Virus genome (UHGV): UHGV-0039399
DNA length: 40,347 nt
Reading direction: 5' to 3' (one strand)
Source of the DNA: a virus
Positions 363 through 35,849 of this stretch are shown in pieces. The notes below the pieces were generated by a model. That model saw nothing but the letters and a program-made list of their open reading frames with translations. It made no database searches and was not told the DNA's origin. Numbering within the stretch: position 1 is the first letter of the stretch; every line of letters starts with the position of its first letter. The position numbers and the translations under genes were made by a program.

Positions 363-378
363 TGTGATATAAATCACA
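363..378. promoter_or_regulatory. perfect 16-bp palindrome TGTGATATAAATCACA (TGTGA-N6-TCACA, CRP-like or operator)
   Basis: Perfect inverted repeat in the intergenic region upstream of the Cys-rich gene; matches the CRP core half-sites with canonical 6-bp spacer. Confidence 0.35.
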
Positions 379-3188: not shown

Positions 3189-3378
3189 TCACTCCGCCTT
3201 GCACGCGCTCCTTAATGTCCCACGTATGCGGTTTACATAACTCATGGTAATAATGATCCGGCCTGCTGCCGAAATACCATTTACCTTCCATATAAAAATA
3301 AACGCCCGAAAAAATTCCGGGCGCTGCCTTTGTTGCTGATTCTGGAATTTTCCAGTCTTTGTACTGTTTAAACTTCAT
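3175..3378 (-). CDS. hypothetical protein
   Basis: 67-aa ORF in a tightly packed same-strand array. Confidence 0.45.
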   Translation of the reverse strand: MKFKQYKDWKIPESATKAAPGIFSGVYFYMEGKWYFGSRPDHYYHELCKPHTWDIKERVQGGVIEDV

Positions 3379-3559
3379 ACATTAACACCGCCTTTTTAAG
3401 TGCGCTTAATTCAAAGTGCATAAGACGAAAATGTTGTACACCACCAACAATACTGACCTGATAAATATCACCTACGCAGTTATAGTAATAACAACCAAAT
3501 TGACCGATTCCGGCTAATTTAGCGTTATCCGGTATCATGTATTCGCCAACCTTTTTCAT
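3368..3559 (-). CDS. hypothetical protein
   Basis: 63-aa ORF, overlapping-stop coupling with neighbours. Confidence 0.45.
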   Translation of the reverse strand: MKKVGEYMIPDNAKLAGIGQFGCYYYNCVGDIYQVSIVGGVQHFRLMHFELSALKKAVLMYEV

Positions 3560-7850: not shown

Positions 7851-7949
7851 CACATTTTGTATACTTTTTTGTAAAATTTATAAGCCATTGATATTTAAAC
7901 AATAAACATAGCTTTCTGTTTACGTTTTGGTGTTTTTATGGCAAAGAAA

Positions 7950-7972: not shown

Positions 7973-8620
7973 TTATGGCAGGTTTACGATCTTCGCATCA
8001 ACAACCACGCCAATGATTTTTGATTCTGGATTCATAGGGATCGGCGGGTACAACGGATTAAGTGAACGCAAAAGTTTTCTGCCTCCATCAGTAATCAACT
8101 GTTTAAACGTCGGTGTCTGCCCTTCCTCCAGTTGGGCTATAACCAGTTTGCCATCAATAGCTGGCGCGTGCGGGTCAACAAGTATCATAGTACCCGCCGG
8201 GATGCTTAACCCCTGAGGCGCGTTCATTGATTCACCTTTGGCAACCAGCCAGTAACTATCATCTGAACAAATAACGCTAGTCGTAACGTGTGGTAATGTT
8301 GATCGGCGTGTGTCTTCCATATTGTTTGCTGCGTCCTTCCAGTCAACAACCGGGTAACTTCCTAAATCACGAGGTGGCGCTCCCGGCAACGTGTTAGAAA
8401 CAGAATCATCAATGACCATACCATCATGAGTAACAGTGAATTGCCGACGCCCAAGCGCCCGCATGATCCGCGCAATATCTTCAAGATTCGGCTCACGGCG
8501 ACCGTTCAGCCAGTGAGAAAGGCCACCTTTAGTTATCCCCATAAGATCAGCCAATGAATCCTGGCTCATGCCCTGCGCCCGCATGAGTTGTTTTGCTAAG
8601 TCATACCATTTTGTTTTCAT
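7973..8620 (-). CDS. cI: CI-type repressor (HTH plus LexA-like S24 peptidase domain)
   Basis: N-terminal XRE-type HTH (QDSLADLMGITKGGLSHWLNG) and C-terminal autocleavage domain with the GESM serine motif; divergent from the rightward operon. Confidence 0.9.
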   Translation of the reverse strand: MKTKWYDLAKQLMRAQGMSQDSLADLMGITKGGLSHWLNGRREPNLEDIARIMRALGRRQFTVTHDGMVIDDSVSNTLPGAPPRDLGSYPVVDWKDAANNMEDTRRSTLPHVTTSVICSDDSYWLVAKGESMNAPQGLSIPAGTMILVDPHAPAIDGKLVIAQLEEGQTPTFKQLITDGGRKLLRSLNPLYPPIPMNPESKIIGVVVDAKIVNLP

Positions 8621-8925
8621 ATCGCTACCCTATAACCTAAAAAATTTTGATGCAAGTCACAAAATGTATTTTTCAATCCTTGATCTATTAACAACATTCT
8701 GTAAACTTGCTGACAAGGTAAGGCCATAGTTGCAAGGATGCAAGGAAAAAGATAAGGGAAAGCACAAAAGGCAAAAGCCTTAAGCTCTTTAAAAATCCGG
8801 TGGCGCTGCAATGCGTAAAACAAATATCACGCAACGGCGGGATCTGTTAAGCGGTCAATCACTGCTATCTAATGCCAATGGGATGCCCGCCCGCGCGTTC
8901 ACTCTAACCATAGGAGAAAACACGA
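8621..8925. promoter_or_regulatory. immunity-region divergent promoter/operator region (PRM/PR-equivalent)
   Basis: 305-bp AT-rich intergenic region between cI and the first rightward gene; contains TGCAAGG direct repeats and an ACAAAATGT motif also present near PL. Confidence 0.5.
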
Positions 8926-11238: not shown

Positions 11239-11271
11239 GTATACATTTTGTGAACCGGAGGAATTAACATT

Positions 11272-20883: not shown

Positions 20884-20916
20884 CGCAATGACTCCATTAT
20901 GTTAATTAACGGAATA

Positions 20917-20925
20917 ATTCTACCA
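20917..20925 (-). promoter_or_regulatory. candidate extended -10 (TGgTAGAAT) for the tail fiber gene
   Basis: Minus-strand TGGTAGAAT about 30 nt upstream of the start codon, in the divergent intergenic region. Confidence 0.3.
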
Positions 20926-21051
20926 TTTTGTGATCTATGTTGCATTTTCTGTTCACACAAAACGTATTTGTTGATTTATATCAATATACGAAATGTGGTT
21001 TTGTCGGATATTTAAGCCACCGGATGAGCAAGCAAGAATGAGGATTCAAAA

Positions 21052-21300
21052 ATGAAAAACGTGTTCAAAGTGGTTTTGTTCGCTGCGGCTGTAGCTCTTA
21101 CTGGCTGTGCTGTTGACAAAGAGGCTGCATTGCATAACCTGCCGAATAGCGGAGTGATTCCACAAGATGTTGTATATGATGGAAGCGGTCATCTTGTCTA
21201 TGACACTGAAAAACTGCCGTATACTGGGCAATGGTGTCATGAACTCGATCACAACATGCGCCGCATCGGTAGCCCTTCGAACTGTGTAGCTAACTACTAA
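21052..21300 (+). CDS. small lipoprotein, candidate Cor/Llp-like superinfection exclusion protein
   Basis: 82 aa; signal peptide with lipobox LTGC; GAGGA RBS; opposite strand between J and the tail fiber gene, ending in a strong terminator. Confidence 0.6.
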   Translation: MKNVFKVVLFAAAVALTGCAVDKEAALHNLPNSGVIPQDVVYDGSGHLVYDTEKLPYTGQWCHELDHNMRRIGSPSNCVANY

Positions 21301-21304
21301 AAGA

Positions 21305-21335
21305 AAACCCCGCGCGAAGCGGGGTTGTTTTTTTA
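21305..21335. terminator. bidirectional rho-independent terminator (lipoprotein gene / J)
   Basis: CCCCGC-gcgaa-GCGGGG hairpin followed by a T-run on the plus strand and an A-run/U-tract on the minus strand. Confidence 0.7.
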
Positions 21336-28637: not shown

Positions 28638-28690
28638 TTTATCACCTTGTCATTTTGTGATCGCCATCACGCTAAATCATACCAAAACGG

Positions 28691-28718
28691 TTGATAGCGT
28701 TTTTACAATATGTATATT
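28691..28718 (+). promoter_or_regulatory. candidate sigma70 promoter for the L-M cassette (-35 TTGATA, 16-bp spacer, -10 TATATT)
   Basis: Near-consensus hexamers about 20 nt upstream of the first cassette ORF; the CAAAACGGTT motif sits just upstream. Confidence 0.45.
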
Positions 28719-28734
28719 GTACTCAAAAGGAAGC

Positions 28735-28920
28735 ATGGTTAACAAAATGGCGCGGAGGTGTGAGGTGGATGATAAGGTGTGGAGGTTGACGGTATTCCTT
28801 AGTGATGGCAGGGAAATGACTGTGGCCCTGTATAAAGATGAAGGCGAGGCACTTACTGACGCGCTCTTACTCGCTGAAGATGAACGAGTTTTTGGATACA
28901 GGATCGAACCTGTCAAATGA
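28735..28920 (+). CDS. small acidic protein (61 aa), L-M cassette gene 1
   Basis: ORF with AAAGGAAG RBS on the strand opposite the tail operon. Confidence 0.5.
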   Translation: MVNKMARRCEVDDKVWRLTVFLSDGREMTVALYKDEGEALTDALLLAEDERVFGYRIEPVK

Positions 28921-28933
28921 GAGGTTAACAAAA

Positions 28934-29284
28934 ATGCAAAAATACAGTTTAGAGGTCTGGACTGATAAATGTGAATGGGAGCGCATGGGCCTGTTTGATA
29001 CATACGCCGCAGCGCGTGATGAAGGTCGTGAGTTACTTCGCTGTTGGTCTGGCGCTCGTGATTTTGATATTACTCCGGTCCAGGTGCCGGATATGGTGGA
29101 AGAGATGAACCCGAAAGATATTAACTTCAACGTCAATGTTGAATTTTCAGACTCTATGGATCAGGCTTGCCCTGGTGAAATTCACGCAAAAGGTTTTCCG
29201 GCAGACGATCCAGAAGCAAAACGCGAATACGAAAAAGCTGCGAAAGACTTCTGCATTGATAACCTGGGCGCATTCGATAAATAA
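28934..29284 (+). CDS. acidic protein (116 aa), L-M cassette gene 2
   Basis: GAGAGG RBS; start refined from the track ORF 28838-29284; strongly acidic C-terminal half. Confidence 0.55.
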   Translation: MQKYSLEVWTDKCEWERMGLFDTYAAARDEGRELLRCWSGARDFDITPVQVPDMVEEMNPKDINFNVNVEFSDSMDQACPGEIHAKGFPADDPEAKREYEKAAKDFCIDNLGAFDK

Positions 29285-29293
29285 GGGGGACAC

Positions 29294-29542
29294 ATGGGTC
29301 GGCGCAACCACGGCGATTATGTGTACACGCTGAAACAGGCCGCCCGCCTCGTCGGGTATCATGAGCACGAATTTATTGATTTGCTGATTGAGCGCGGGAT
29401 ACTTTACCAGGTCTGTCTGACGCTGTACCCAAAAGCGAAATACCTACAGGAAAAGTTATTTATCATCATGACGGACGAAAACCAGGTAAATCACTCATTC
29501 GTCACTGATAAAGGTGTCAACTATCTGCGTGATAACTTATAG
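29294..29542 (+). CDS. small HTH DNA-binding protein (82 aa), L-M cassette gene 3
   Basis: GGGGG RBS; N-terminal excisionase/MerR-like HTH (YTLKQAARLVGYHEHEFIDLLIERGIL). Confidence 0.55.
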   Translation: MGRRNHGDYVYTLKQAARLVGYHEHEFIDLLIERGILYQVCLTLYPKAKYLQEKLFIIMTDENQVNHSFVTDKGVNYLRDNL

Positions 29543-30359: not shown

Positions 30360-30533
30360 GATCCCCCCCCTCTCATAAGTTACATATTGCATACATCTTT
30401 ACGCGCTTCTACGCGAAAAATGATAACTTCGTCACAAGAATTATACCAAGTTTACGAAATGGCTTCACACAGGACGCAACAAGATGTATACAGAAAGCAA
30501 GAAGAGAAAGCAGTACCAACAAAGGGGGCCAAT

Positions 30534-30689
30534 ATGGAACGCTATGTAGTGGTAATGCTAAACAAAGCATTCGAACAGGTGGAAGTTGCGATTGTGAAGG
30601 GTTTTGATGATGCATTCAAATACGGTCAATTCATGATGAATGCAAAAGAAGATGAATACCGTGATTTCTTCCTGAAAGTGGTCAACTGA
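30534..30689 (+). CDS. small protein (51 aa), M-tape-measure cassette gene 1
   Basis: AAGGGGG RBS; opposite strand to the tail operon; the track's longer ORF 30330-30689 has weaker start context. Confidence 0.45.
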   Translation: MERYVVVMLNKAFEQVEVAIVKGFDDAFKYGQFMMNAKEDEYRDFFLKVVN

Positions 30690-31475: not shown

Positions 31476-31506
31476 TAACCCCGGCATTGTACCGGGGTTT
31501 TGTTTA
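31476..31506. terminator. rho-independent terminator between the convergent cassette and tape measure gene
   Basis: CCCCGG-cattgta-CCGGGG hairpin followed by TTTTGTTTATTT. Confidence 0.65.
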
Positions 31507-33852
31507 TTTCCTGCGAGGTTGCAACATACCGCCAGGTCGTTGTGATTCCCTTGCCATCATTTTCATTGCTACGCGCTCCATCGTCTGTTCAAGTCTGCGA
31601 CCGTCTTCGTCGCTAAACCCGTTCGTGGTATGGACGTTTATGTTAACGGGCATATTTATGCCGCCACCATTGAAGAGATCACGGCCAGGAATCACCCTAC
31701 CATTCTCGCCAGGAATCATATACTGACGCCCGTTGCTCGTCTGGAATAGCTCAGGAATCCCGTGTTCACCTACGCGATACAGACTACCACCATTAACAGA
31801 ACCACCATTATAACGCCCGCCGCCAAAAATTGACGTTGCCAGCGACATGATCGCAGAAAGCGCCGCAGCACCAGCCGCCGCCCAGCTACCGCCAGTCGAT
31901 GCAGCAGTAGCCGCCGCAGCAGGGGCCGCCGCAGCCGCGATCTCACCCTGGGCAGCAACAGCGCCAGCCGTTGTACTTGCCTGGGTAGCTTTGCTTTGCG
32001 TTTCCATCATCAACTGATCTGCTATCCAGTTAGCGGCAATTTCTGATAGTTTATTGCCAACAGTATTGAGTATGCTGCTTCCCAGGTTGGCGAAAACCTC
32101 ACTTAGCGATTGAGTACCGTTTAGCAGTCCGGTAAGGGCATTACCCATGCCACCTTTCAGGCCGCTGACGCACGCACCAATCAGGCCGTTTGTGTCGCTT
32201 TGCGCCTGCCATTGTTCCCATTTCAGATCTCTGATCTGTTGTTCATATTCCAATAGAGCCTGTTTCTGTTGCGCCTCTGTAGCGCCCAGGTCTATTAGCA
32301 TTTGTTTTCGAACTGCCCATTCATTTTGCGCCTGCTTGATTGGGTCAATTTCTCCCTTAAGCTGGTCCATCGGGCTAACTATGTGGTCCCATTTATCGCG
32401 TAGCTCATCAACCGGGATCTGAGCTAATTCGTCCTTCAGTTCCTTGCCTATCCCTTTCTGCGCGGCCTTGTACTCAAGGAGGGTTATTTTGCCCTGGGCG
32501 AACGCAGCATCAATGGCCTTGCCGTTCTCCAGCGCCTTACGCATGGCTGCGGCGTCCTTGTTGTACTGGTCGGACACTTTTATACCTTCATCACCAAGCC
32601 GATCAGCTTCTGATTTCTTGTCCTTTTTGCCCTTTTTCCCTTTCTTCGGCTTACCAACTGGCTGATCGAATCCCGTGATCTTGCCATCGTCAGCCTCACC
32701 CTGTTTCTGCATAAACTCATCATAGGCGGCTGTGGCTTTTTCTATGTCATTCTTAAATGTCATGAATTTGCCAATGGTAGGGCCAAATTTCTTCTCGTTG
32801 TTGCTGTTTAGCTCTTCCTTGCGTTTGTCAATGATTTCCTTCATCCATTTGTAGCCATCCATTAGCGCCTTGATTGGCGTCACCATTCTGATGATTTCTT
32901 CCGCCACCTCTCCCGCTTTAACAGCAACATCGTCAAACATGTCGATGAACTCGCTACCAGCGGTTTTAAGTGTATTGAAGCAGGTTGCGGCGAATTTTGC
33001 GCCTTTACCTAATCCCTCAACGCCACCAGTGATTAAGTCTATTGCTGACACAACGCCATCTGATATGCCGAAAAGATCGTCTAGCTGTTCGACAAGCCCC
33101 ATTACCTCAACTTTAAGCTCGTTGAAGGCCATGCCGGACGTGCGCGGCAACTGTGCGAACTTCTCGTTCGTTTCCTGCGTGGATGCCTGGATCGCGTTGA
33201 GCATCCTTTCAGCCGTGATCTTACCGTCCAGCATTTCGGCGCGGAATTGACCCATTGATAACCCCATTTGGCGGGCCATTTCCTGTATGATTGTTGGTGT
33301 GTTGTCACGTATTGAGTTAAATTCTTCAGCCTGCAACACGCCAGCATCAATAGCCTGGCGGAACTGGCGCATGGAGTTAGATAGCTGTTCCGCAGACACG
33401 CCGCCCAGGTTGCCTAGTTTTTGCAGCGTGCTGACCAGGTTTAAGACCTGGCCTTCCGTAGCGGATGTATTTTTTAGCGATATAGCAAGCCCTTGCCACA
33501 GGTCGCCAGTGTCCTTGAGGCTTTGGCCTGTCTCTTTTGATATATCTTTCAGTCTGTTGAAAACGCGTTCCGTGGCCTCTGCTTCACCTGTAAGCAGTTT
33601 GATTTTCACGCGAAGCATTTTTGCTTGCTCCGCCATGTCAATAAACTGGCGCACAGCCTCCGCAGCAAGTAACAGATGGATGACCCTGGATAGTGCTTTG
33701 ATTGAAGTCTTAAGCGTATTCACCTGGCGGTCAGCGCGTTTTGCGCCACGCTCGATACTGTCAAAAGCCTGGTCTGCCTGTCGTTGAGCAACGAGAAGTT
33801 GACCAGTTTTTGCATCAACTTCGTAATAGATTGTACCTAAACTACCCGACAT
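31504..33852 (-). CDS. tail tape measure protein
   Basis: 782-aa, largely alpha-helical, Ala/Gln-rich ORF with a Gly-rich C-terminal region, positioned between tail chaperone and M. Confidence 0.9.
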   Translation of the reverse strand: MSGSLGTIYYEVDAKTGQLLVAQRQADQAFDSIERGAKRADRQVNTLKTSIKALSRVIHLLLAAEAVRQFIDMAEQAKMLRVKIKLLTGEAEATERVFNRLKDISKETGQSLKDTGDLWQGLAISLKNTSATEGQVLNLVSTLQKLGNLGGVSAEQLSNSMRQFRQAIDAGVLQAEEFNSIRDNTPTIIQEMARQMGLSMGQFRAEMLDGKITAERMLNAIQASTQETNEKFAQLPRTSGMAFNELKVEVMGLVEQLDDLFGISDGVVSAIDLITGGVEGLGKGAKFAATCFNTLKTAGSEFIDMFDDVAVKAGEVAEEIIRMVTPIKALMDGYKWMKEIIDKRKEELNSNNEKKFGPTIGKFMTFKNDIEKATAAYDEFMQKQGEADDGKITGFDQPVGKPKKGKKGKKDKKSEADRLGDEGIKVSDQYNKDAAAMRKALENGKAIDAAFAQGKITLLEYKAAQKGIGKELKDELAQIPVDELRDKWDHIVSPMDQLKGEIDPIKQAQNEWAVRKQMLIDLGATEAQQKQALLEYEQQIRDLKWEQWQAQSDTNGLIGACVSGLKGGMGNALTGLLNGTQSLSEVFANLGSSILNTVGNKLSEIAANWIADQLMMETQSKATQASTTAGAVAAQGEIAAAAAPAAAATAASTGGSWAAAGAAALSAIMSLATSIFGGGRYNGGSVNGGSLYRVGEHGIPELFQTSNGRQYMIPGENGRVIPGRDLFNGGGINMPVNINVHTTNGFSDEDGRRLEQTMERVAMKMMARESQRPGGMLQPRRK

Positions 33853-33890
33853 GATTTTACCTCACTAAAAAGTGTGATCCAGATCCATAT

Positions 33891-33934
33891 TTTATACAAA
33901 ATGTCTTCACTTCAACGTATACATTTTGTATAAA
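33891..33934. promoter_or_regulatory. perfect 14-bp inverted repeat TTTATACAAAATGT-N16-ACATTTTGTATAAA (candidate operator)
   Basis: Exact inverted repeat in the intergenic region between the tape measure start and the third opposite-strand cassette. Confidence 0.5.
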
Positions 33935-34101
33935 GAAGTCAAAGGAAGAGAGAGAAAAGAAGGTCGAAGGAATAAGGGATTAAGACTTGAGGCACAGCCA
34001 ACCGAAGGAACGAGGGAGGCGAAAACCACTAAAACTAACAGGAAACAGAAAAAGGATTTAAAAGACCGGATGAACCGGAGGAAGCAAAAGAGGATAAGAA
34101 A

Positions 34102-34188
34102 ATGAAAGGCTACTACCGACCCAACGAGCATGAGCATTATGCCGACTTTATCGAAGAAATGCTGAAAGCACTTAAAAACAAGAAATAA
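34102..34188 (+). CDS. 28-aa peptide, tape-measure-chaperone cassette gene 1
   Basis: Manually found ORF MKGYYRPNEHEHYADFIEEMLKALKNKK after a purine-rich leader. Confidence 0.3.
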   Translation: MKGYYRPNEHEHYADFIEEMLKALKNKK

Positions 34189-34201
34189 GCGGGGCGGGTG
34201 A

Positions 34202-34309
34202 ATGGACACAATCAAAACGGTTATAGATGTATATATTACAGCATGGTTAGCATTTAATGTGATGGCTGTGCTGGTGCTGGCAATGACAACCGAAGATAAA
34301 CGCAATTGA
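34202..34309 (+). CDS. 35-aa membrane peptide, cassette gene 2
   Basis: Manually found ORF MDTIKTVIDVYITAWLAFNVMAVLVLAMTTEDKRN. Confidence 0.35.
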   Translation: MDTIKTVIDVYITAWLAFNVMAVLVLAMTTEDKRN

Positions 34310-34319
34310 GAGGTGTATC

Positions 34320-34622
34320 ATGGAACTGGTAATTTGCTTCGTCGGATTCATCGCAACTATGGTTGTAGCTCAGAAAAAACACCTGAATATGCTCCCGGCA
34401 TTCTTTGGTGCGCTGATTTGTTGGCCTGCCGTATTGATTTACGCGCTGTGCGTTAACAAAAAGATGTTCAAACACTACGTTGATGCAGTGACTTTCGTAA
34501 GCATGGAGTTCCCGAACGCAACTGACGTACAGAAAGCACAGGTAGCAACTTACATTTACGATAACGTGTACGATATTCATGACCTGGATGAAGCAAGATG
34601 CCGATTCGCAGCATACAAATAA
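34320..34622 (+). CDS. membrane protein (100 aa; two TM segments plus soluble C-terminus), cassette gene 3
   Basis: GAGAGGTG RBS; hydrophobic N-terminal half; followed by a strong terminator. Confidence 0.6.
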   Translation: MELVICFVGFIATMVVAQKKHLNMLPAFFGALICWPAVLIYALCVNKKMFKHYVDAVTFVSMEFPNATDVQKAQVATYIYDNVYDIHDLDEARCRFAAYK

Positions 34623-34626
34623 AGAT

Positions 34627-34654
34627 AAAGGCCCGGTTAATTCCGGGCTTTTTC
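34627..34654 (+). terminator. rho-independent terminator ending the third cassette
   Basis: GCCCGG-ttaatt-CCGGGC hairpin followed by TTTTTCTTGTTT. Confidence 0.65.
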
Positions 34655-35317
34655 TTGTTTGCGTTTTTTCATCAATTCCAGCACCCTTTTAGCCGCTCCC
34701 ATTTGCTCATCATAATCACGTTTATTTATCTGAACGTTTGGCTTACGTTTCTCGTTTCTTTCGTCTGGCGGCGTTTTAGCGCGTACAGCGGCACGATACC
34801 CGGTCATGGTCATACCCCACGCCTCAGACTCAGACAATCCCAGGTGAGCAACGGCAGAGTAAACATACTCAAGGATGTCGAATGTCTGTTTATAATCGCC
34901 TTCCTGCTCATCGCTAACGTCTTCCTCCGGTCCGTCACCAATTAAACCGTGGAACATGCAGTGTTGCGCCAGTGTGATAACGTCGCTGGTGGGCATTAAT
35001 CCGGGTTTTAGTCTCAACTTACCCGAAGGAGTGAAGCTACATTCGCCCAATAACTGGCCTATTTCGCATTCTGAGCAACATTTCAATATGTGGATGGACG
35101 TTTGCACCAGTTCACCATAACAACGCGCCAGAATGCGATTGCGGAGGTCTGGATCAACTGGCATACGCCGTGGGTATTTGCCACCGTGAACCGTTGCGAA
35201 GTATTCGACCAGTTCCCTGTCACCGCCGATCTTAGCCATTGCAGCAAAGCAGGGATTAAATTCGTAACGTCTGCCATCAACCACAACCGCAAACTGTCCT
35301 GTTCGAACGTGAATCAT
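34637..35317 (-). CDS. putative tail assembly chaperone (G/GT position)
   Basis: 226-aa ORF between the tail tube gene and tape measure; AAGGTG RBS at the refined ATG; assignment by position only. Confidence 0.45.
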   Translation of the reverse strand: MIHVRTGQFAVVVDGRRYEFNPCFAAMAKIGGDRELVEYFATVHGGKYPRRMPVDPDLRNRILARCYGELVQTSIHILKCCSECEIGQLLGECSFTPSGKLRLKPGLMPTSDVITLAQHCMFHGLIGDGPEEDVSDEQEGDYKQTFDILEYVYSAVAHLGLSESEAWGMTMTGYRAAVRAKTPPDERNEKRKPNVQINKRDYDEQMGAAKRVLELMKKRKQEKARN

Positions 35318-35327
35318 AGTTGTCACC

Positions 35328-35356
35328 TTAAAAAATAAAGGGGCCAAGCGGCCCCG
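35328..35356 (-). terminator. rho-independent terminator after the major tail gene (attenuator)
   Basis: GGGGCC-loop-GGCCCC hairpin followed by CUUUAUUUUUU on the minus strand, 17 nt after the tail tube gene stop. Confidence 0.6.
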
Positions 35357-35372
35357 ATGTCAATATTTACTG

Positions 35373-35849
35373 TTACAATACAGGAACGTCACCTACTGTG
35401 ACCTTGCCAGCGCTTTCGCACTCAATTGACCAGGTGGACACATCGTCGTGCGGATCTTCTTCCTTAAAGGAAGTGCAAAGGAACGGACCCTCTGTTACAT
35501 CAAGCGGTGAAACGAGTTTCAACCAGACGTAAGGCTGCGCACCAGTTGTTTCGCCAGGGTTAATAACGTGGCGTTTAAGTGCTTTCTGGTTGTGGATCTC
35601 TTCGGTGCGGGATACGCCGTCGCCGGAGAAGGCAACAGATTTGTAAGTTACCAGTGATTCTTTTGTGTAGTCTGCTGATTTATCAGCGGTGGCGTCTGCG
35701 GTTTCCCATTCTACGGAAAGAGATTTGCCACGCATCATGCCTAACGCTTTATAGTCTTCTTCGTTTGGTTTCGTTTTAGGGCAGGCGATAGCGTAGAATA
35801 CGGCAACGTCACGGCCTAAGAACGAACCTTTTTCACAAGTCTGAGACAT
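35373..35849 (-). CDS. major tail (tube) protein
   Basis: 158-aa ORF in the V position, followed by an attenuator terminator; assignment by position and size. Confidence 0.55.
   Translation of the reverse strand: MSQTCEKGSFLGRDVAVFYAIACPKTKPNEEDYKALGMMRGKSLSVEWETADATADKSADYTKESLVTYKSVAFSGDGVSRTEEIHNQKALKRHVINPGETTGAQPYVWLKLVSPLDVTEGPFLCTSFKEEDPHDDVSTWSIECESAGKVTVGDVPVL

Follow-up and report, generated by a model that had tools for sequence, protein, structure and literature searches.

T4 Imm and P22 SieA block phage DNA entry at the inner membrane. Both are small phage-encoded inner-membrane proteins (PMC3594210), and the same applies to HK97 gp15, a YebO-like inner-membrane superinfection exclusion protein encoded in the slot between the chaperone and tape measure genes and described with a promoter and a terminator of its own (PMC3594210). 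Here, we analyzed a cassette in the corresponding slot of UHGV virus genome UHGV-0039399, a 40,347-nucleotide stretch of viral DNA (referred to as a whole as the window) from a mEpimmI-type (mEp021-like) temperate coliphage or prophage. The cassette occupies the 784 bp separating the tape measure gene from a gene of the DUF6246 family, forms a plus-strand unit antisense to the tail genes, and contains three open reading frames (ORFs) of 28, 35, and 100 amino acids (aa), the two longer of which are predicted to encode membrane proteins. It resembles the gp15 locus in its position and in specifying small proteins of the membrane, by prediction the inner one; on the other hand, gp15 is a single 62-aa protein encoded on the same strand as the tail genes, and it is not preceded by a micro-ORF, a purine-rich leader, or an inverted repeat. 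The likeness to T4 Imm and P22 SieA is one of functional analogy alone, as there is no sequence match and a BFVD fold search returned nothing at E <= 0.001.

Our analyses favor, with a probability of about 0.6, the reading that this cassette is an autonomous antisense moron in the tail operon whose inner-membrane pair protects the host, most likely by blocking phage DNA entry. The unit would be transcribed by the host RNA polymerase while the late operon is silent, i.e. in the lysogen, and would be shut off by converging late transcription during lytic growth. Once inserted into the inner membrane, the two proteins would protect the cell, most likely by preventing the entry of an incoming phage genome, whereas the inverted repeat and the GGA-rich leader would impose transcriptional and post-transcriptional control, exerted by a DNA-binding protein and possibly by CsrA. 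The cargo appears to be exchanged through homologous recombination within the conserved 5' module and the tail genes on either side.

Coding strand and cargo of the slot

All three plus-strand ORFs listed in a preliminary description of this DNA (28 and 35 aa, the latter a transmembrane peptide, and a 100-aa protein with two transmembrane helices) are present, as judged from the ORF list and hydropathy. Across six homologous loci, the 100-aa gene shows a ratio of nonsynonymous to synonymous substitution rates (dN/dS) of 0.09-0.26 in the plus frame, with 21/11/44 variable columns at the first, second, and third codon positions; the corresponding figures are 10/4/18 for the 35-aa ORF and 6/3/16 for the 28-aa ORF. 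Because third-position variability is seen in all three, they are, on this comparative evidence, real genes. The antisense frame of the 100-aa gene, on the other hand, has a dN/dS of 0.4-2.0 and is interrupted by 3-4 stop codons in each of three relatives (L003, L004, and L007), so that coding on the minus strand, which the preliminary description had named as one finding that would overturn its view, can be rejected. It is extremely improbable that the real coding sequence is a minus-strand one, be it the ORFs called by PHANOTATE in mEp554-type records or a -1 frameshift extension of DUF6246 such as that of lambda G/GT. A 108-aa minus-strand ORF (34254-34580) does lie in the -1 frame of DUF6246, in a frame that opens ~19 codons before the DUF6246 stop and near an A-run (ATGAAAAAACGC), which made a G/GT-like product a serious rival, and minus-strand ORFs are annotated here in GenBank (mEp554_92/93, mEp044_93, mEp010_98, mEp515_85, and MagusPhagus CDS0038). 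However, in addition to the dN/dS values and stop codons of the antisense frame, frameshift extensions would be unrelated to each other in relatives with other cargo, the minus-frame translation is Cys- and His-rich, as is typical of an antisense reading, and its product has no family matches. A G/GT-type frameshift was rejected because no -1 extension is conserved and because of the stops in L003, L004, and L007. The hypothetical minus-strand genes annotated in the slot in GenBank lie at 3239-3424 and 3515-3790 of L001, 1738-1917 of L004, 1738-1839 of L005, 1454-1573 of L010, and 1370-1474 of L011. The coding test covered the mEp554 ORF opposite the 100-aa gene, which fails it, the remaining minus-strand calls overlying the promoter and leader; by this test, the annotation opposite the 100-aa gene is an artefact, as the other GenBank minus-strand annotations in the slot probably are, and the wrong-strand annotations of several GenBank phage records are corrected.

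The variety of genes found in this slot became apparent from loci gathered by BLAST (11), by a search for the repeat pattern (44 viral contigs and further metagenome contigs), and via DUF6246 (42). All 49 fully delimited slots carry plus-strand cargo behind the same upstream region, in which the first 40 nt from the tape measure start, the inverted repeat, the -10 hexamer, the end of the leader, and the start of the micro-ORF are nearly invariant. The cargo comprises the 35- and 100-aa pair (15 loci for each family), a 138-aa signal-peptide protein (15 loci), a VasI/TagO-like lipoprotein (14 loci), a BamE-like lipoprotein (10 loci), secreted signal-peptide proteins of 116-119 aa (7 loci), and several rarer kinds. 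As far as these sequences, about 60 related loci in all, can tell, cargo is exchanged at high frequency in this slot behind a 5' module that stays fixed, making it a hot spot, and most of its cargo families are envelope-targeted. In the same comparison the 35- and 100-aa genes are one exchangeable cargo, and the leader and the 28-aa ORF are a conserved core, two points that the preliminary description had overlooked.

An empty version of the site is found in a more distant relative (L193, DUF6246 31% identical), in which the DUF6246 stop codon overlaps the tape measure start codon (TGATG in CTGATGG) with no insert between them; the tape measure protein starts with MAQDLGTIYYEVDAK there and with MSGSLGTIYYEVDAK in the window. 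The GC content of the slot is 41.8%, versus 50.6% for the tape measure gene and 48.2% for DUF6246. The absence of an insert in L193 and the lower GC of the slot place the cassette within the moron definition of Juhala and Hendrix, in that it is an insertion between otherwise adjacent genes with its own terminator and a deviant base composition; the promoter of its own and the expression from a repressed prophage that belong to the same definition are predicted for it. The strong terminator mentioned in the preliminary description is an intrinsic hairpin at 34627-34665 (stem 34627-34652) with a GCCCGG-N6-CCGGGC core and U-rich tails on both strands, overlapping the DUF6246 stop codon. It folds at -19.5 kcal/mol on the plus strand (z = -4.6), where a T-run follows, and at -15.1 kcal/mol on the minus strand; since the same hairpin with a U-rich tail exists on the minus strand, it is probably bidirectional. 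A terminator is annotated at this place on one or both strands in mEp021, mEp010, mEp554, and mEp515. Together with the promoter-like signal described below and the envelope theme of the cargo, the empty site in L193 and this terminator bear out the architecture of a moron that had been proposed for the cassette.

The tail region of the window is 84-93% identical to those of mEp554, mEp044, mEp010, mEp021, and MagusPhagus, and to the same extent to those of ~33 Escherichia coli prophages. The mEpimmI phages have been described as a group and are reported to be as common as lambdoid phages among human-gut E. coli phage collections (PMC11893012). On the minus strand, the slot is bordered by the tape measure gene (31504-33852, a 782-aa ORF), whose start codon abuts the cassette and whose homologues are so annotated in RefSeq and match Pfam TMP_3, and by the DUF6246 gene (34637-35317), followed by the tube gene (35373-35849). 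DUF6246 likely starts at the ATG at 35317 and not at the listed TTG at 35347 (236 aa), its RefSeq homologues being 226 aa long. The preliminary description had called this gene a tail chaperone; its product is a DUF6246 protein (Pfam PF19759, E = 3e-55), which owes the name chaperone solely to being encoded between the tube and tape measure genes. The protein has no similarity to any solved structure, and the gene is without a -1 frameshift partner, unlike most siphophage chaperones.

Inverted repeat and predicted promoter

The perfect inverted repeat reported earlier is present at 33891-33934, its arms (33891-33904, TTTATACAAAATGT, and 33921-33934, ACATTTTGTATAAA) being complementary at 14/14 positions across a 16-nt spacer. 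The window has no second perfect inverted repeat of 12 bp or longer whose loop measures 3-30 nt; first-order Markov simulations lead one to expect 0.13 per window. A sigma-70 promoter is predicted, by eye, on the plus strand at 33906-33934, with the -35 hexamer TTCACT (33906-33911), a 17-nt spacer, and the -10 hexamer TATAAA (33929-33934), which would place the transcription start near 33941. The right repeat arm covers the -10 hexamer and the left arm abuts the -35 hexamer, an arrangement that looks like the geometry of an operator. In an alignment of 25 distinct upstream regions the -10 hexamer is almost invariant. The 11-nt cores of the arms are identical in 11/11 BLAST-derived relatives, the spacer varies, and rare variants with an imperfect repeat (L092 and L168) have the pairing broken on one side only, a pattern favoring recognition of the DNA by a protein over an RNA hairpin. 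An alternative is that the repeat works as an RNA hairpin of the late transcript (minus strand), 40-80 nt ahead of the tape measure start codon, that stabilizes or processes this mRNA, and is not an operator of the cassette. The minus-strand fold has an energy of -14.8 kcal/mol (z = -4.4) and, in both slots in which it occurs, the repeat lies directly upstream of the ribosome-binding site of the next tail gene. We nevertheless consider a hairpin function decidedly unlikely, because the arms are conserved in sequence with no compensatory changes and with one-sided variants, because the right arm coincides with the best -10 hexamer, and because three other antisense cassettes of the window are without the repeat although a tail gene follows them.

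Which protein might bind the repeat is suggested by the distribution of its 9-mer ACAAAATGT, of which the window contains five exact copies, against 0.8 expected. Two of these (7852-7860 and 8659-8667) lie at the promoter regions on both sides of a LexA-family repressor gene (7973-8620), and a further copy (11243-11251) is in the intergenic region before 11272. These copies may be operator half-sites of a phage regulator. Following this line, the cassette would not be expressed in lysogens, the repeat being the operator of a CI-like repressor or a Cro-like protein, and it would fire early after infection or induction to be silenced later by converging late transcription, in the manner of T4 Imm in lytic growth. 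The copies flanking the repressor gene occupy the same positions relative to the -35 and -10 hexamers as in the slot, and the sequence invariance of the arms over a drifting spacer agrees with such a role. On the other hand, ACAAAATGT is short and AT-rich and is not enriched in the window when one mismatch is allowed, variants with an imperfect repeat exist (L092 and L168), and the operators of the repressor are not defined (PMC11893012); we regard this early programme, with no expression in the lysogen, as unlikely.

Host factors were considered as well. The sequence TGTGAT at 33873-33878 on the plus strand, which is like the left half-site of CRP, is centered about -60.5 from the predicted start and is invariant in all aligned slots, and TTTGTGATC recurs at the 5' margin of two further cassettes (20927 and 28654). 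However, a full CRP site in the slot matches at 7/10 positions, outside the 2-mismatch list, and CRP-like matches are not enriched in the window, leaving CRP control of the cassette as a weak lead from a candidate half-site. When the repeat pattern was searched in one genome per species, it was found in unrelated phyla in a chance-like manner and once in Rosenbergiella, in a different context. In Rosenbergiella australiborealis (L081, 5786-5825), a longer version of the palindrome (ATATACAAAATGTATTCA...AATACATTTTGTATA) stands in an unrelated chromosomal context, and from this copy a host factor might be proposed to recognize the palindrome. In metagenomes, all copies of the repeat with a TGTGAT flank adjoin mEpimmI-type tail genes.

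The membrane pair and its proposed function

The 35-aa gene (34202-34309, plus strand) encodes a single-pass membrane peptide by hydropathy, MDTIKTVIDVYITAWLAFNVMAVLVLAMTTEDKRN, with one membrane segment at residues 6-30 in the mEp554 homologue. The 100-aa gene (34320-34622, plus strand) encodes a protein with two predicted N-terminal membrane helices and a helical C-terminal domain of ~50 aa. A topology prediction, one of the checks proposed for it, gave two membrane segments by hydropathy in the family (mEp554 homologue), at about residues 1-19 and 21-46 in the window protein, and AlphaFold2 predicted helices at 2-19, 24-63, 69-82, and 86-95 with a pLDDT of 73. Helix 2 ends in a conserved motif, WP.VLIYALC.NK, which is invariant as WP.VLIYALCVNK in the nine close homologues. 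The homology search that had also been proposed was productive in part: among 5.8 billion database proteins the family is represented by 8 clusters of homologues, 95-100 aa long, and when 1.84 billion representative proteins were searched with a profile, 3 further significant matches were added, 2 of them convincing relatives, but no known family or fold emerged. The 35- and 100-aa genes are always adjacent in this slot. In one metagenomic locus (L093, 407-633), the 35-aa gene is present as an exact tandem duplicate before the 100-aa gene, and in both L092 and L093 the 28-aa micro-ORF, present in the DNA but missed by the gene caller, is followed by a cytoplasmic ORF of 60 aa.

A block of DNA entry appears the most likely function because the products are envelope proteins, because most of the other cargo of the slot shares the envelope theme, because the 5' module is shared with a lipoprotein cassette of the same phage that looks to be of the exclusion type, and because HK97 gp15 sets a precedent. 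The lipoprotein cassette (20884-21330) is also antisense within the tail cluster and has an envelope product, and homology links its 5' region with the one in the slot (z = 9), the two having TGTGATCTATGT, CCGGAT, GCAAGCAA, GAGGA, and AAAATGAAAAACGT in common. It differs in its cargo, in possessing a perfect FNR box in place of the inverted repeat, and in the lack of a micro-ORF of its own; the lipoprotein itself is read from the homologous start codon. Lipoproteins of the Lpp (Cor-like) class exclude phages when expressed from plasmids (PMC11893012), and the window gene, by its lipobox and position, looks like a member of this class. The FNR consensus (TTGATTTATATCAA, 20971-20984) is ~30 nt upstream of a TATTTA -10-like hexamer ahead of this Lpp/Cor-like lipoprotein moron (21052-21300, plus strand, lipobox LTGC) and suggests anaerobic induction of this putative exclusion lipoprotein.

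A number of observations weigh against protection of the lysogen by this pair. With regard to expression, the -35 hexamer differs between relatives, and a consensus promoter scanner found no promoter in the slot, a miss explained by its rule demanding T at position 6 of the -10 hexamer. The occurrence of ACAAAATGT at the repressor promoters counts in the same direction, for if the prophage repressor binds this sequence, the cassette would be off in lysogens. With regard to the products, the 28-, 35-, and 100-aa proteins have no significant match in Pfam, PHROGs, PADLOC, PDB sequences, or a BFVD fold search, and none of the slot's cargo proteins was hit at E <= 10 when HK97 gp15 was used as a blastp query. 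Given this lack of a family match and of similarity to gp15, the exclusion role, although most likely, is argued from the position of the genes, from analogy, and from the membrane location of the products. For the 100-aa protein, the positive-inside rule leaves the topology ambiguous, positive charges flanking helix 2 on both sides. Finally, the 100-aa family is found without its 35-aa partner in L096 and L120, so the pair is not obligatory.

With the same architecture, it is possible, if rather less probable, that the pair performs another envelope task in the lysogen, such as stress tolerance, resistance to colicins or type VI effectors, or modulation of transport. The VasI/TagO-like, type VI secretion-associated lipoprotein and the BamE-like lipoprotein in the same slot point to envelope functions wider than phage exclusion; moreover, the phage already has a dedicated exclusion-type lipoprotein cassette elsewhere, and no PADLOC defence model matches. 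Nothing, however, points to any particular alternative envelope function, and HK97 gp15, the sole characterized protein from this slot in a different phage, acts in exclusion. The constant adjacency of the two genes in the slot and the tandem duplicate of the 35-aa gene in L093 might also be read in terms of an addiction or abortive-infection module, in which the 35-aa peptide would be a toxin that damages membranes, with the 100-aa protein, or else an RNA, as its antidote. The size of the peptide and its single hydrophobic helix resemble those of type I toxins. However, neither an antisense RNA gene nor the long structured 5' untranslated region typical of type I systems was seen, a scan of the slot for the promoter and terminator of an antisense RNA of a type I toxin-antitoxin system having revealed none and no family match, the postulated toxin and antidote likewise match no family, and the 100-aa family stands alone in L096 and L120, which makes such a module very unlikely. 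Protection of the lysogen at the inner membrane remains our preferred reading; of the overall interpretation in the preliminary description, the genuine plus-strand cassette, the two membrane proteins, and the moron slot hold, and the tail chaperone is, as described above, one in position only.

Leader, micro-ORF, and related 5' modules

The 5' leader (33935-34101, 167 nt, plus strand) consists of 48.5% A, 29.9% G, and 8.4% T, and its peak 160-nt segment, from 33941, is with 79% purine the maximum of the window (mean 48%, standard deviation 7%), in agreement with the purine-rich leader noticed earlier. It is almost structure-free, with a minimum free energy of -17.5 kcal/mol for 161 nt, and less structured than 99.5% of random window segments. 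This is the long form of the leader, which compared with most relatives contains a 92-nt purine-rich insertion. The leader has 11 GGA motifs, a density that neither strand of the window reaches anywhere else, although relative to what its own composition predicts the motif is enriched modestly (P = 0.03 to 0.17). Among five long leaders, GGA columns are 98.8% identical, versus 91.9% for the other columns; 10 GGA motifs are kept in 5/5, and at least nine positions conserved in all five coincide with GGA motifs of the window. A small hairpin, CCGG-ATGAA-CCGG (34066-34078, -5.5 kcal/mol), is followed on the same strand by GGAGGAAGC and by the strong Shine-Dalgarno sequence GAGGA (34090-34094) of the 28-aa ORF, and the stretch from hairpin to Shine-Dalgarno sequence (34066-34094) is the best-conserved part of the upstream region. 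One GGA overlaps the Shine-Dalgarno sequence (GAGGAT), and another is ~15 nt upstream, beside the hairpin.

The 28-aa micro-ORF (34102-34188, plus strand) encodes a hydrophilic peptide, MKGYYRPNEHEHYADFIEEMLKALKNKK, and belongs to the conserved 5' module: a sequence-pattern search found it in 31/49 surveyed slots, irrespective of the cargo. The same pattern had no match when searched in one genome per species. In relatives the ORF is mostly unannotated; in L008, PGAP calls it with a 46-aa extension. A 59-aa ORF with a TTG start (33926-34105), which overlaps the ATG of the 28-aa ORF as ATGA, was rejected because it starts upstream of the predicted transcription start and because most short-leader relatives have no leader ORF of at least 25 aa; the leader is open in every frame owing to its T-poor composition. 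A nut site was likewise discarded, boxA being T-rich and the leader 8% T, and nut sites have been placed only in the early region (PMC11893012). Rfam gave no match over the region at E <= 1 except for two chance-level ones near the terminator.

The integron Pc/attI platform consists of a fixed promoter and a short translated leader ORF (ORF-11) before exchangeable cassettes. By description, the slot is similar in placing a fixed promoter and a short leader ORF ahead of exchangeable cargo, but it is without an integrase and without attC sites. With regard to control, the leader can be compared with those of the CsrA targets glgC and pgaA and with CsrB/CsrC in having 11 GGA motifs in 167 nt of single-stranded RNA, one of them on the Shine-Dalgarno sequence and a second ~15 nt upstream, within the 10-63 nt range over which CsrA can bridge (PMC7652899). 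In contrast to those RNAs, the slot does not display its GGA motifs in hairpin loops, only a few of them match the ACARGGAUG core, and there is no Rfam match to CsrB/CsrC. The leader fits CsrA-type control, which we take as a lead. A more far-reaching scheme would make the conserved 5' module the actual innovation and the cargo its passengers, and would have the basal cassette specify a ~300-nt prophage RNA, comprising the unstructured GGA-rich leader and the 28-aa micro-protein, that acts as a dual-function regulator titrating or gated by CsrA (and perhaps CRP), tying accessory expression to the carbon status of the host and providing a portable platform that captures envelope genes; we regard this scheme as quite doubtful. 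A cargo-less cassette and the reuse of the module in a second slot, both found in a distant relative, L096, are compatible with it. In the slot discussed here, L096 has no cargo but only the promoter-repeat, a purine leader of the long form, a micro-ORF of 29 aa, and a terminator, so that this micro-ORF is the sole ORF of the minimal cassette; in its tube/DUF6246 slot, a second TGTGAT and repeat module precedes a 122-aa distant homologue of the 100-aa protein. L120 has the same arrangement in the tube/DUF6246 slot with a distant homologue of ~100 aa, and the promoter-repeat module is also found beside tape measure proteins 32-43% identical to that of the window.

Similar signals occur elsewhere in the window. 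Downstream of the tape measure gene, a cassette at 30363-30540 has a promoter-like AAATGGCTTCACA-17-TATACA, with 12 nt in common with the slot promoter of relatives, and then a purine-rich leader; this cassette (at 30360) and the slot have AAATGGCTTCAC in common. The shared promoter-like sequence and the purine leader suggest that several morons of this phage reuse related 5' modules. The antisense cassette at 28638-29542 has a CRP-like site matching at 9/10 positions (TGTGATCGCCATCACG, 28656-28671), centered about -61.5 from a TTGATA-16-TATATT promoter (28691-28718), and nowhere in the window is the skew of G over C stronger than in the 5' region of this cassette. Near the left end of the window (363-378) there is a palindrome, TGTGATATAAATCACA, that matches the CRP consensus perfectly. 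The rightward early leader beside the repressor gene (8700-8790) is also purine-rich and contains CAAGGATG, a perfect CsrA core (CARGGAUG), just upstream of a boxA-like GCTCTTTAA.

The micro-ORF, the GGA-rich leader, and the portable repeat-promoter are the unusual control parts of an otherwise ordinary prophage add-on, and standard gene callers mostly miss the conserved 28-aa micro-protein and the GGA-rich leader. The slot is a place where mEpimmI phages trade envelope-acting genes, and with the catalogue of its cargo and a conserved control module now defined, effects of these genes on exclusion or fitness can be tested directly. If the 35- and 100-aa pair does block DNA entry, it would constitute a new protein family among the few known inner-membrane exclusion systems.

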